Source of the DNA: Bacilli bacterium
GTDB taxonomy: Bacteria > Bacillota_I > Bacilli_A > RFN20 > CAG-826
Reading direction: 5' to 3'
DNA: 64,000 nt
Assembly (NCBI GenBank): GCA_045130875.1
Contig: JBGUQI010000022.1
Span: forward strand, 215,795-279,794
Shown: piece by piece, positions 51,001-60,000 of the stretch
Numbering within the stretch: position 1 is the stretch's first letter
Layout of the letters: every line of letters begins with the position of its first letter
Position numbers: made by a program

Positions 51001-54000
51001 AAAGATAACCACAATGTCCCCAATTATGGGGGCATTCAAGTACTAGAAGTACTTACTGATTCTATGGAACCCACTTATAAAACCAAAAGTGTCGTCTTTG
51101 TAAAAAAGGTGAAGATGGAATCCTTTAAAGAAGGTGATGATATCACCTTTATGTATTACATCTCCTCTTTGAGAAAGACGATGCCCATGACTCATAGATT
51201 GATGAGTATTAAAACTCCAGAAGAAACCGGAACTGGACATTATGAATTTGTGGCTCATGGGATTAATAAGAATTCCACACAATGTAATGGTGATTGTACC
51301 TATCAAACCCAAGTCTTTAATGAGACCCAGGTATTAGGTAAAGTTGTCGGTCATTCCATCGTTATCGGTGCGGTATTTAACTTTATGACCACACCATGGG
51401 GGTTATTGATATTACTGTTAATACCAGCATTATATCTCATCATCACCTCAGTGATTGACATAGTCAATGCCGCGAAAGATGATGAGGATAAAGCTCCCGC
51501 TTTAGAAGGGGGAGGGGGTTCTGGAGCCCTAGATAAATTATCCAAAGAAGATATTGAAAGACTTAAGCAAGATATGCTTAATGAAATGATTGAAGAAAAA
51601 AGTAAAGGAGGGAAGAAAGATGAATAGAAGTAAAAAACTTTTAGCGGGAATGATAACACTTCTAGTGATTTTCTTGCTCCTTATGGGTGCCACCATCATC
51701 TTGTGGTATGTCGAATTAGTGAAGAATCCTCTCTATGTTACTTTAGAGATTATCGCCTTAGTATTACTCGTGGGTGGCTCTGCATTCTTATTCGCTTTAT
51801 ATATCAATGAACAGAGAAGCATTAAAGAAGGTATTAAAGAGAATGAATACAATCTTCATAGAAAAGTAGTTTTCTATTCCTATAACTACTTCTCTAGAGC
51901 CTTATCTTCTACATTAAGTAGAAACAAGAGAAAGACCGGTTATTTAATCGTCTTTAACGCGGTTAAATCACACGCGCTTACCACATACACAATTAACAAG
52001 ACCGCGGACTTCAATGGTTATATCGCGGACTTCATCTTAGATAAACATGTCCTCGGTAAGGAATATGGAGATTTTAACTTCTGTTTCTACCGTGGTAACT
52101 TCCTATTCTATTTGATGTGTGATGAAACTAAACTAAATAACTTCATCACCGATATGGAAAATGAAGCCTATCGCTTAGTGAGAGAAATGGACTTCCGTAT
52201 CAATGTCCAACCAACATTTGGTATCTATGAACATGAAGGTGGTAAAGAAGAATCCATCTATGAGATGACTAATAAAGCTATTGCCGCGAGAGAAGTCGCG
52301 GAAAAGAATTATGAAAACGCTTTATTCTTCTCTGAAGAGATGATTCAAGATACATCCTCTAATGAAGCGGATGAAATCGCCAAAGCCTTAGAGAACAATG
52401 AATTCGTCGTCTACTATCAACCTAAGTTCAATCTTAATGGTAGAGAATTCAATTCTTCTGAAGCTTTAATTAGATGGAACTCCCCCACGAGAGGTTTATT
52501 ATCTCCCATGAGATTTATCAACTCCGCGGAAAACGGAGGTTTAATCCATAGAATTGATATGTTCGTCTTCGAACAAGTCTGTAAGGACTTAGATGAGACT
52601 AAGAGAAAAGGAAGAAGACTCATTCCTGTCTCTATTAACTTCTCATTATATGAGTTCTATCATCCAACATTCGTTAAGGATATCGCCGCGATTATTGAAA
52701 AATATAATACCAATCCTAATTTATTAGAGATTGAAATCGTCGAAGGCACAACCGCAGCGAATATCTTCTTATCCATCTCCATCTTAAAGAGATTAAAAGA
52801 GATTGGTTTAAAGATCTTAATGGATGACTTCGGTGTTGGTTTCTCTAACTTTAATAACTTGAAGAACCTTCCTATCGATGTCATTAAAATCGATAAATCA
52901 TTTATCGATAATATCACCACGGATATCAAATCTAGAGAAATTACTAGATTCATGATTGAATTCGCTAAAGAAATCGGCTTAGAAGTCGTCGCGGAAGGTG
53001 TTGATAATCAAAAGCAGGTGGATTTGTTAAAGAAATTCAAATGCGACACTATTCAGGGATTCTTCTACTCTAAACCTTTACCACGTAATGAGTTTGAGAG
53101 ATTTATCGCCACGAATACATTTGAGAAGAGGAGGGACGCTAGATGATTTTAATTTATGGTAGTACACGTGATGACGTGTCATATTTTGAAACTCGTATTC
53201 AAAATAAAAAAGAAGATACCATCCTCGGTAAATACAAGTTTATCACCGGCACGATGTCCTCTCAAAAAGTCGGTGTGGCCTATGGAGGATACACTAACTA
53301 TTTAAGTACGGCGATTATCTCCACGATTCTCGCGAAGAATATCGATATCGTCTTAGTGATCAATGTCGGTAAATGTTCCGCTTATGGGGAAGAATTAAAA
53401 ACTGGAGATATCGTTATCTCTAAACAAACCTATCTTGCAGAAGTTAATCAAGTGGGCATCAAAGATGCGATTTTAGGACAAGTTCCCACCTGTCCTCAAA
53501 TCTTTACCACGGATGCCTATGTCTTAGAGTTATTAAATAACTGTGTAAATAAAATTATTAAAAAGAATAATTCCAAGATTGGGACATTTATGTCTATGGA
53601 AAAGATTCTTCATAGAACTAGTGATTTCGATCATATCGCCGCTTCTAATGGAGTGATATTAGGAAATAAAGAAGATGTGGTATTCGACTCCTGCACAGGC
53701 GGAGTCGCATTAGCGAGTTATCTTCATAACATCCCTTATATCTCTATCGAAGTCGTAGAGAATAGAATTGATGAAGCTCCATCAATCTCTAGTTATGTAA
53801 AAGTCATCGAACACTATCTCGATATCGGTAAGGCTGTGGCCTCCTTTATCGGAGAGATATCCCGTAATGATGTCATCATAGGAAATGAATAATCATTATT
53901 TATATAAATAATAAGAAGGTGAGAATATGGAACAATATTATTTAAATAATCGGAACAGAAGGAAACGCTTTAAAAAGAAAAAAGATAATTCCGTCGAATT

Positions 54001-57000: not shown

Positions 57001-60000
57001 ACCATTAGACTTAGATGTCTTATTAGACAAACTAAGAGCAACATTGATTAAATAAGAAAAAAGCCAAGGAACTAAACCTTGGCTTTTAACTATCTAACGT
57101 TATTACTATAATTTCTATTTACACTTTTTGCTGTAAAATTGAAATAATCTTCATTTTAGCCACTTTTTTACTAAATTGTTTAGATAATTAACTATTATTT
57201 CTAATATAATCAATCAGTATTTTGATATTAGATTCTTCTTTTGATAACGAGGATAGCATTTCAATCATTTCATCATACCTAGTTGCAAACAATTCATAAT
57301 ATTGTCTTGGTTTGCTTTTGTGAGGATCGATGGGGTAGCCGTGTTTTATGAAAATGGTATCCATATCTGGAACAAAATAAATAGGTTCGATTAAATCGTC
57401 GTCACCCCACCACGTTCCTTTGAATAAAGATTTATCGATATATGCCTTGAGCATCTTATCTGTTGTTTCATCTTTATCCATAATAGTGAATATTTTATGA
57501 TTGATTATTTTTTTATTTGAAAGATGAATAGTTTGATCATTTTTCTTTATGTATTCTTTTTCGGTTGGATATTGAGATGATAAAAACTTATTAATGGTAT
57601 TGATATTAATTGATATCTTTCCATTTTTATCTGCTATGGGGTGTAGATTGCGTCTATTCTTATTTTGCATTTGCAAAACAATGTTATATTCACATTCGCC
57701 ATGACAAACAACACTACAAATAAGATAATTAATTTTTCTGTTCATTATCCTTCACGGCCTCAACGATATATTCCATAGAGAAGAAACCTTCTTGCGGAAC
57801 TCCCCCATATAATCCTTTTAGGTATTGAGAAACAAGATTTGTTCCAGCTTGGATTTTTCTGCCAAACTCATCTAATGAGTAACAAGATATTCTTTGGTCT
57901 GGATTTCTATCAAGTAGATAGACGCCATTTTTGATTGGATAATCAAGCAAAAGAGTATTATGTGTCGTAAAAATAAGTTGGCCTTTGATTGATTTTTCTA
58001 ATGATTTAATAATTGTTTTTAACAATATATCATTTATGCCATTATCAATTTCATCAATAATGATTGTCCCATTGTTGGTGGCGGCATAATAGAAATACTT
58101 AAACAATTTAAGCAACTTCTTGGTACCGGTAGATTCCTTTTCGTAAGGAATATCAACGCTATCACCAGTTGTTTTTTCAATAAAATGTAGTTTGTAAGTT
58201 CTCGTACTACCACTTCGGTTAGAAGTTATACGATAATCAACTCCACTAATGTTCGCATACAAAGAAGAATAAAACATTGTTAAAGCTTTTTTAGTCTTCA
58301 TCATTTGTCTTTCAAGAGAATCATCGTATGGTCCTTCAAAAACATCATCCAACAAATCATTAATATACTCATCATCAGGTTCATCTATATTTAAAAAAGA
58401 GAAAAATGATTCATTTTCTTTAGTCTTGAATATGAATGTTTTTTCAATAGAGTCCATAAATTCAATTACGGGTATGCCAACGCTTTTCTTAACTAAAGAA
58501 AAATCCACTTCCTTCACGACTGCATTTATACATGACAAAATTGTGTGTTTCCCAAAATACAAAGAGCAATAATCTAAAATGAGATTATTCAAATTATCAG
58601 ACATAAAAAAGTTTGGTTTTAATGTCAATTTCTTTTTGCCTGCATGAAAAATAATATCTCCGTTGCACATTAATTTTTCTTCAACGATTCTCTTGCTGCT
58701 AAAAATCATAGAATAGACAAATCTTTTGTCGTGAATGAATGACTCAAAAATTAGTGACATATTATTATCGGAACCTATTCTTTTATATTTTTCGATAGGT
58801 TCTTTTATGCCGAGAGAATTGGCATACTGGCTAAAAATACCATAAAAATTTTTTTGATCATGGTCTTTAGACAGATAATCATTTGCACGTTTCAATCTCT
58901 CAATTGAATAAAATGATTTAACCAACAAATCAAAAGCATCAACAATCGAAGTTTTTCCGATGCCATTTTCTCCGTAAATTAAGCAAAGTTTTTTAGCACG
59001 CTTTTCATTCTTGTTTTCACTAAAATCAACTTCAAAATGATCAAATGACTTAAAGTTTTCTAAAATCAATTTACTAAACATAATTAATGACCTCGAAGAT
59101 AATATATCTATTTTCTGGTCAAAAATCAATAAAAAGTCATTTATACCTAAATATTTGCTAATTTTTTTAGCATTTACTATTGTGTTGTGAGATAAGAATA
59201 GTTATTATAAAGATATGGAAAATAAAAAGTCCTGACAAATATTACTAAAACCATAGCACATCGCCATGCTATTGCATTTAGTAATCATAGCTATGTGGTG
59301 TGCGAATTCTATCGCCATCATTTTGATGGCTTTTTCTTTCCTTAGTGGAGACTCCACTATAAAAGTCTACTATAGGAGGGGAGAGTATGAACAAACAACG
59401 AGTTTTTATTTCTTTCGATTATGATCACGACAGTGATATTAAAGGGTCATTAGTTGCTCAAGCAAGAAATGATGATTCTCCTTTTGAAATTGTTGATATG
59501 TCTATAAAAGAAGCTATTGATTCAAACTGGAAATATTACGCTAGGCAAAGAATTAGAAGCTGCAATTGTGTTATTGTTTTATGTGGAAAATACACTAATA
59601 CAGCCAAAGGCGTTACCGCCGAATTAACAATTGCCCAAGAAGAACATGTTCCATATTTTTTGCTTTGTGGTAGAAACAACGAAACTGTTCAAAAACCAGT
59701 GAGTGCTAAAGCTTCTGACAAAATCTATAAATGGACATGGGATAATCTAAAACTATTACTGAAAGGATATAGATAACATGAAGGAAGAAATAATTTCAAT
59801 TTGGTCGTCATATACAGAACAAGCCAACGAACTAACAAACAAACGATTGACAATGAGCTCTTTCTTTTTTGCTATCTCTGCAGCTTTGCTTGGGTTATCA
59901 ATCCCTTATTTAGGACTTCCAAGTTTAATCATTTCCACTATTGGATTATTGCTAAGCATCATGTGGTGTTTAATGATTCTATCTTTTAAGTCATTAAATT

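Follow-up and report, generated by a model that had tools for sequence, protein, structure and literature searches.

The window analysed here is a stretch of 64,000 nucleotides (nt) of a Bacilli bacterium (RFN20; CAG-826), positions 215,795 to 279,794 of contig JBGUQI010000022.1 in GenBank assembly GCA_045130875.1. It holds an operon of about 17 kb, found in uncultured gut and rumen Bacilli, whose 3' end carries three signalling genes: a cyclic di-GMP (c-di-GMP) phosphodiesterase candidate (EAL518), a PNP-like protein of the PNP_UDP_1 superfamily, and a protein of 1042 amino acids (aa) with a degenerate EAL domain (dEAL1042). An earlier note on this DNA had described these genes, with a divergent PAS-GGDEF gene, as a self-contained set of c-di-GMP writer, eraser and reader. 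The three genes are real, but it was overlooked that they form the tail of a conserved operon for a SipW-type signal peptidase, an AAA+ ATPase and secreted proteins. The features of the locus are as follows (TM, transmembrane):

37652-38581, minus strand: PAS-GGDEF diguanylate cyclase (writer), divergent from the operon.
38780-39667, plus strand: T1, a secreted protein of 295 aa, N-terminal TM helix followed by GTVAWFT; own terminator at 39686-39707.
39820-39893, plus strand: c-di-GMP-I aptamer, 5' of T2 and the gene for a 1012-aa protein.
39911-43934, plus strand: T2 (327 aa) and the secreted 1012-aa protein, a cassette with its own aptamer.
44621-44773, plus strand: tandem c-di-GMP-I aptamers, 44621-44697 and 44694-44773.
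44760-44834, plus strand: expression platform, terminator hairpin then U-run, from RNA folding and leader comparison.
44922-47838, plus strand: T3, T4 and T5 (283, 328 and 361 aa), secreted or membrane proteins without known family.
47838-49355, plus strand: membrane-anchored McrB-like AAA+ (AAA_5) ATPase (AAA_5, 23.1 bits).
49361-50860, plus strand: 499-aa protein with a Lys/Glu-rich coiled-coil tail and no family match.
50860-51627, plus strand: SipW-type (archaeal/ER-type) signal peptidase I.
51620-53146, plus strand: EAL518, with two TM helices, a degenerate GGDEF-like domain (RGNFL) and a complete EAL domain (eraser).
53143-53892, plus strand: PNP-like protein of the MTAN fold, without Asp197 and Glu174 and with translational coupling to the EAL gene.
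53927-57055, plus strand: dEAL1042, with two TM helices, GGDEF-like domain 1, a GAF/PAS-like module, a Cys-rich segment, GGDEF-like domain 2 and a degenerate EAL domain (candidate reader).
57059-57087, strand unassigned: terminator hairpin, palindromic, that separates the operon from the AbiL-like genes converging on it; called in the scan on the minus strand only, and its palindrome suggests that it serves both directions.

Pfam and NCBIfam searches of the window open reading frames (ORFs) bore out all four signalling genes, each at the coordinates and with the domains that the earlier note had given, and the domain models PF00990, PF00563 and PF01048 scored above their cut-offs in the respective genes. 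No further GGDEF, EAL or MTAN-like ORF, including a second MtnN, was found among the window ORFs.

EAL518 scores 236.8 bits against the Pfam EAL model (cut-off 31.3). The ORF caller placed its start at a TTG at 51590. The ATG at 51620 is the better start, since an AGGAGG box precedes it by about 9 nt and it overlaps the final codons of SipW. The residues of EAL518 and dEAL1042 were mapped by alignment to MorA and then counted in ortholog columns. In EAL518, all 11 catalytic and metal-binding residues (E291, R295, N350, E382, E385, D412, D413, K433, D435, E469 and Q489) are invariant in 79 orthologs, and the same residues are intact in three distant loci. This supports the earlier view that the protein is likely active, and EAL518 looks, by its residues, like an active c-di-GMP phosphodiesterase. 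Its membrane anchor consists of two TM helices with a 10-residue loop between them. The region before the EAL domain is GGDEF-like, with RGNFL in place of GGDEF (weak profile-profile match, 60% probability, E 8.6e-5), and no recognisable sensor domain was found in the protein.

The ATG of the PNP-like gene overlaps the TGA of EAL518 as ATGA (53143-53146), as had been noticed before, and an AGGAGGG box lies upstream. The protein belongs to the PNP_UDP_1 superfamily (PF01048, 53.1 bits against a cut-off of 25.1) and scores below the cut-offs of the MtnN equivalogs (TIGR01704, 48.4 vs 73.8 bits; NF004079, 52.1 vs 169 bits). Its AlphaFold2 (AF2) model has a mean predicted local distance difference test (pLDDT) score of 84.8, and the top 50 Foldseek matches in the PDB, which have TM-scores of 0.72-0.82 and 14-20% identity, are all MTANs or futalosine hydrolase, a close relative of these. 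Residues were aligned to E. coli MTAN and to 100 library representatives; the true MTANs from the library validated the alignment columns independently, and all of them have M9, E12, (D/E)172-M173-E174, R193 and S196-D197. In about 60 representatives of the PNP-like family, position 197 is never Asp, and it is Asn in the window protein. Glu174 is kept by about half of the family and is Cys in the window protein. Every representative has D at the E12 position, nearly all have K for R193 and S, T, C or N for M173, and Met9 is also replaced in nearly all. Phe151 is replaced in many. The window protein has lost Met9, Phe151, Met173 and Glu174 together.

The sub-cut-off scores and the loss of Asp197 and Glu174 rule out that the PNP-like protein is an ordinary MtnN. 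It shares with MtnN/Pfs the fold (TM-score about 0.8), the length, the GQxP loop and an acidic residue where MTAN has Glu12, whereas it differs in its low identity, in the family-wide loss of Asp197 and in its position only downstream of an EAL gene. The earlier description of the protein as unusual rather than an ordinary MtnN/Pfs therefore holds. The accompanying suggestion that it clears degradation products is unsupported, because the general acid for cleavage of the purine N-glycosidic bond is missing throughout the family. Judging from these residues, a role as partner of the EAL518 phosphodiesterase, either non-catalytic or repurposed, is more likely for the PNP-like protein. The family is small, comprising 45 clusters at E 1e-30 or better among 1.84 billion representatives. 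The best 150 of 716 matches are single-domain proteins without fusion to EAL, GGDEF or other domains, and no examined member lies outside an EAL-linked context. An Asp197-less MTAN-like family tied to EAL genes appears to be undescribed. A protein with the MTAN fold that lacks the catalytic Asp and is encoded only beside an EAL gene is a candidate for a new regulator or partner of c-di-GMP turnover.

The dEAL1042 gene starts 34 nt after the PNP-like gene and has its own Shine-Dalgarno sequence. The protein scores 102.9 bits against the Pfam EAL model, and profile-profile comparison found GGDEF-like domains at residues 168-310 (87% probability) and 627-773 (95%), while control segments gave 0.5% and 14%. 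The GGDEF motif positions read KRTGY and YRDNI, and no I-site (RxxD) was seen by eye in the GGDEF-like domains. In 62 orthologs, E816 (in ELL instead of EAL), R820, N879, E911, E914, D941, K962 and E1001 are invariant or nearly so. In the same orthologs DDFG has lost its second Asp, with Q, R, N or H in that place and D in none; V or I stands in for the general-base Glu (first E of EGVE), which no ortholog retains; and the Asp of KxD is variable. Degenerate GGDEF and EAL domains had been reported for this TM protein, and the degeneracy is thus consistent across orthologs. The pattern suggests consistent catalytic death with a preserved binding site: since the contact and first-metal residues are kept while only the catalytic ones are lost, binding of c-di-GMP is predicted to be retained.

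The LapD/FimX architecture that the earlier note assigned to dEAL1042 stands as far as the degenerate GGDEF-EAL tandem is concerned, but the likeness is a functional analogy only. Like LapD and FimX, dEAL1042 has this tandem, is predicted to be inactive and keeps the nucleotide-contact residues; like LapD, it is membrane-anchored. In contrast to LapD, it has no HAMP domain (no match in the Pfam search) and no periplasmic domain, its two TM helices being joined by a 4-residue loop, and in contrast to FimX it has no REC domain. It carries an additional N-terminal GGDEF-like domain, a GAF/PAS-like module and a Cys-rich segment, and it keeps the first-metal-site residues, unlike both. Its score against the LapD equivalog NF045673 is 31.4 bits (cut-off 1020), although the GGDEF-EAL tandem structures of DosP, RbdA, MorA and LapD are among the top matches of a fold search with its AF2 model. 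By analogy, dEAL1042 may work like LapD or FimX in principle without being a member of either family. The model has a pLDDT of 63 and contains a confident alpha/beta module at residues 345-495, which we read as GAF/PAS-like from its modelled secondary-structure pattern. Residues 498-620 are unreliable in the model and hold the invariant cysteines C549, C560 and C563, which lie within a conserved PCKDCP motif of the ortholog consensus. This Cys segment may be a metal or redox sensor.

The PAS-GGDEF protein scores 123.7 bits against PF00990 and 30 bits against PAS_3, and its RFGGDEF motif is intact. The residues in FNDTYGHDVGDEIL that we take to specify guanine are the canonical Asn and Asp and not of the Hypr type. 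Orthologs with 71% and 51% identity occupy the same divergent position next to T1 in two relatives (L090 and L091). That this gene is the only intact GGDEF gene agrees with the ORF scan of the window, and its synteny is kept in these relatives. In other clades, intact GGDEF genes come after the operon instead. At one locus of UMGS732 'Mollicutes' (L066, 16153-19305), the dEAL position is empty; 5 kb downstream lies a gene whose 1051-aa product combines an intact GGDEF motif with an EAL domain like that of EAL518, and another aptamer follows it.

The PNP-like family was found in 72 species-level genomes by a scan with one genome per species. Nearly all of these, under the labels Erysipelotrichaceae, Mollicutes or Candidatus Enterosoma, are uncultured Bacilli of the rumen and gut. 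The order AAA+ ATPase, coiled-coil protein, SipW, EAL518, PNP-like is kept across these genomes, and at loci with enough flank it runs from T4 and T5 through these genes to dEAL1042. The EAL and PNP-like genes are adjacent at 72 of 72 genome loci and at all metagenome loci examined; because the adjacency holds everywhere, the arrangement is not due to chance. The two genes overlap by 1-4 nt in seven of nine called loci. At the most distant tiers (L085, L087 and L088), the PNP-like gene directly follows an intact EAL gene in an AAA+/SipW operon that has no dEAL1042. Thus, the invariant core is the EAL gene and the PNP-like gene: the coupling of these two stands from the original trio, but the 1042-aa protein is dispensable in the more distant lineages. 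In the literature, we found no paper on SipW in connection with a c-di-GMP riboswitch, on EAL together with an MTAN-like gene, or on c-di-GMP in RFN20.

The domain and residue calls behind the proposed circuit were sound, but three c-di-GMP-I aptamers had been overlooked. The aptamer at 39820-39893, before T2, scores 54.7 bits against RF01051 (cut-off 35). The aptamer at 44694-44773 was found by the Rfam scan and its tandem partner at 44621-44697 by a separate search of the flank. These two score 61.2 and 62.8 bits against RF01051 and 79-97 bits against a custom model built on 13 aptamers, and they precede the transcription unit that runs from T3 through SipW and EAL518 to the PNP-like and dEAL1042 genes. 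Tandem c-di-GMP-I aptamers are common, with 347 doublets described (PMC9481103). With the custom model, 26 aptamers were found across 73 sources, and a later search with added loci gave 29 across 22 sources. An aptamer lies 5' of every T3 homolog whose leader is available (16 of 16 loci, plus L090 and L091). In the aptamer alignment, 96.6% of pair cells hold standard pairs, compensatory changes occur at 8 of 16 pairs, and none of 500 shuffles reaches this level. The three aptamers would, by their sequences, put the operon genes under cyclic-dinucleotide control.

RNA folding of the T3 leader showed that the 5' arm of the terminator (AGCCAGT..GC) is the 3' strand of the aptamer. About 40 nt past the T3 aptamer, most leaders have GATGATAGGCA(A/G)CTGGCT and then a T-run; this is the reverse complement of the aptamer 3' strand, AGCCAG(T/C)TGCC, and both covary, as in L020 (AGCCAGCTGCC with GGCAGCTGGCT) and L024 (AGCCAGTTGCC with GGCAACTGGCT). 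A count by eye found the complement and the T-run in 14 of 16 related leaders. Since the terminator arm and the aptamer 3' strand are the same segment, ligand binding would sequester the 5' arm of the terminator, and we infer that the riboswitch of the T3 leader is an ON switch. A conserved TTGGGACA box lies at 44844-44851, about 10-20 nt past the start of the U-run and before the T3 start. It occupies the same place in most T3 leaders, those of L001, L015, L016, L020, L024, L027, L029, L039, L045, L051, L061, L071 and L079, with TGGGACA in L016, and could be a second regulatory site.

The cassette of T2 and the 1012-aa protein has its own aptamer wherever it is located, and it is placed elsewhere in L001, L061 and L065. 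In L001, a 67%-identical relative, an aptamer, T2 and a large secreted protein are inserted between the PNP-like and dEAL genes (10807-15485); in L061 and L065 the same cassette comes after the dEAL gene. The T2 cassette moves as a unit with its riboswitch.

At position 20 (Vc2 numbering), the 26 distinct aptamers have A in 22 cases, G in three and U in one. In the window, both tandem aptamers have A and the T2 aptamer has U, so that none has the G20 of c-di-GMP-selective aptamers, the residue by which the G-alpha base is recognised. A20 defines the cGAMP-type GEMM-Ib aptamers (PMC6140456), and the A20 aptamers of this family fit, by this position, a bispecific or cGAMP-type variant. They share A20 with GEMM-Ib aptamers such as Geobacter Gs1761 and C. 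beijerinckii Cbe 1-2, with C92 and A47 retained. They differ in context, which here is an EAL gene and a canonical rather than a Hypr GGDEF gene, and in having G20 at orthologous sites. Because of the canonical GGDEF, the EAL domain and the orthologous G20, c-di-GMP is the more economical ligand. With A20 aptamers so prevalent beside an EAL/GGDEF pair, the locus lends itself to asking which ligand GEMM-Ib-like riboswitches recognise in vivo.

The signal peptidase scores 56.1 bits against TIGR02228 (cut-off 51.85) and 64 bits against the Bacillus SipW equivalog NF046067, whose cut-off is 190. At the N-terminus of T1-T5 and of the 1012-aa protein, a TM helix precedes a motif like G-T-x-A-W-F. 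The GTVAWFT type of this motif appears to resemble the SipW-type or TasA-type signal peptide, and these six proteins are presumably SipW substrates. The 1012-aa and 499-aa proteins had no match in the Pfam, NCBIfam and PDB sequence searches. The AAA+ ATPase matches McrB in the PDB (E 7e-6) and is the best-conserved gene of the operon, with 58-91% identity across loci against only 25-50% for its neighbours. The gene after it always encodes a coiled-coil protein rich in Lys and Glu, whose length varies greatly, and the two may be a McrBC-like pair with a role in secretion or assembly. As in the B. subtilis tapA-sipW-tasA operon, a SipW-type peptidase is encoded here with several secreted proteins whose N-termini appear to resemble the TasA-type signal. 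The locus differs in its McrB-like ATPase, its coiled-coil protein, its riboswitch/EAL/GGDEF control and the lack of a TasA or camelysin match in the T proteins. SipW, the AAA+ ATPase and five or six unclassified secreted proteins may form an undescribed surface-structure system relevant to host colonisation.

These findings may imply the following circuit. PAS-GGDEF would raise c-di-GMP, and c-di-GMP bound to the aptamers would prevent termination, so that the surface-protein operon is transcribed. The co-transcribed EAL518 would then lower c-di-GMP, giving negative feedback and a self-limiting pulse. dEAL1042 would bind c-di-GMP at its inactive EAL site and, at the membrane, signal to the secretion or assembly machinery that the site is occupied. 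EAL518 would have the MTAN-like protein as a dimeric partner without catalytic activity, or at least without MTAN activity; since EAL518 itself lacks a sensor domain, this partner may be its small-molecule-sensing regulatory subunit. On balance we lean towards this model of a riboswitch-gated surface-protein operon with a feedback phosphodiesterase, a reader and an MTAN-like partner. The locus shares a GEMM-I aptamer, a competing terminator and surface-protein genes with the c-di-GMP ON-riboswitches of Firmicutes adhesins and pili, such as Bc2 before cap in B. thuringiensis and the pilA1 riboswitch of C. difficile. It differs from them in that a phosphodiesterase and a candidate receptor are encoded within the regulated operon, most aptamers are of the A20 (GEMM-Ib-like) kind and the cargo is an uncharacterised SipW/AAA+ system. 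The locus is built from known kinds of parts, and the circuit is a variant of known c-di-GMP circuits with a new EAL-linked protein family. A riboswitch-gated operon with its own phosphodiesterase and candidate receptor appears to be undescribed, and so does the SipW/AAA+ cargo. The locus offers a compact, fully syntenic c-di-GMP circuit, with cyclase, putative tandem ON-riboswitches, feedback phosphodiesterase and candidate receptor, in Bacilli of the gut and rumen that form a large, uncultured group about which little is understood.

Several observations weigh against parts of this model. T1-T5 have no Pfam or NCBIfam match at E values up to 1, TasA and camelysin included, and no sequence match in the PDB. 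No evident terminator follows the T2 aptamer in the window, whereas the T2 leaders of L001, L061 and L065 have one, and no more than 18 nt separate this aptamer from the called ATG (39893-39935). T2 may here be controlled at the level of translation, or its true start may be at the second Met. In dEAL1042, YLP (Y801, L802 and P803, all invariant) stands where active EALs have YQP, and many degenerate EAL proteins, such as YdiV, BluF and CsrD, are not known to bind c-di-GMP. Like these, dEAL1042 could be a nucleotide-blind scaffold or transducer that acts by protein contacts, with the riboswitches as the sole readers. Its absence from distant operons that keep EAL, PNP-like and AAA+ genes speaks for this, as do the other putative sensor modules and invariant cysteines in its N-terminal 600 residues. 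We nevertheless hold it doubtful, though a serious contender, since E816, R820, N879, E911, E914, D941 and K962 are kept in the 62 orthologs and the losses are confined to catalytic residues. As for the PNP-like protein, D10, D11, D182 and Q113 are strongly constrained in its family, and with Glu174 kept in about half of the members, a re-engineered catalytic site is possible. The protein could then be a working nucleosidase or phosphorylase that acts on guanine or adenine nucleotides (GMP, pGpG) after EAL518. The MTAN fold is kept with good model confidence, an invariant Asp-Asp occupies the Glu12 position and Asp182 that of Glu172, the GQxP loop is common to MTAN, and strong purifying selection accompanies the translational coupling to the EAL gene. 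Such activity seems unlikely to us in view of the absence of the Asp197 general acid from about 60 representatives when every true MTAN aligned has it, the replacement of Met9, Met173 and Arg193 in nearly all, of Phe151 in many and of Glu174 by Cys here, and the TIGR01704 score below its cut-off. Moreover, we know of no pathway that removes the base from pGpG or GMP with a PNP/MTAN fold.

With A20, the change that defines GEMM-Ib, in 22 of 26 aptamers, the ligand could also be 3'3'-cyclic GMP-AMP (3'3'-cGAMP) or both dinucleotides, and the EAL/MTAN-like pair would then handle an adenine-containing dinucleotide. The Vc2 G20A variant binds c-di-GMP at 53 nM and cGAMP at 120 nM, and among natural A20 aptamers some are selective for cGAMP and some are bispecific (PMC6140456). 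MTAN is, besides, an adenine-nucleoside-binding fold. We consider this reading rather improbable, because the locus has a canonical GGDEF with guanine-specifying Asn and Asp and an EAL domain, and no CD-NTase or Hypr GGDEF was seen in the sequence examined. G20, present in three orthologously placed aptamers, disfavours cGAMP, which leaves c-di-GMP as the ligand common to all aptamer variants. To our knowledge, EAL domains are specific for c-di-GMP. A bolder version is quite improbable: the Asp197-less MTAN-like family would be a component of cyclic-dinucleotide signalling not recognised before, a nucleotide-sensing or nucleotide-modifying subunit that gives the EAL protein a new specificity or regulation, and with the A20 riboswitches it would form the first EAL-based circuit for an adenine-containing dinucleotide (3'3'-cGAMP or pApG) in Firmicutes, gating a new AAA+-driven, SipW-dependent surface-filament machine. 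An anti-phage role, in which the McrB-like AAA+ protein would act with a PNP-domain effector in the manner of the ATP-nucleosidase effectors of CBASS and Detocs, is barely credible. PNP-domain effectors do exist in defence systems, an AbiL-like pair lies immediately downstream, and the AAA+ core matches the PADLOC candidate PDC-M26A with 124.5 bits. It is, however, the only part that does: the PNP-like, EAL, dEAL and coiled-coil proteins have no PADLOC match. The PNP-like protein lacks the catalytic Asp, and besides its c-di-GMP riboswitches the operon has genes for a signal peptidase and for five or six secreted proteins. The locus is collinear in the 72 species genomes, like a vertically inherited trait, and because of this vertical synteny a defence-system identity was rejected.

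Convergent with the operon on the minus strand (57188-59129) lie a gene for a 466-aa ATPase that matches PADLOC AbiLi with 155 bits and an overlapping gene for a 185-aa partner without match, which are probably an AbiL-type abortive-infection pair. The GC content falls to about 0.31 from 56 kb onward. On the other side, a 224-aa protein (36938-37612, minus strand) has weak matches to the NERD-containing N-termini of defence proteins and a C-terminal CxxC...CxxC ribbon. Rfam also finds an FMN riboswitch at 20628-20740 (minus strand) and, at 12764-13087 (minus strand), an RNase P RNA of class B, typical of Bacillota.

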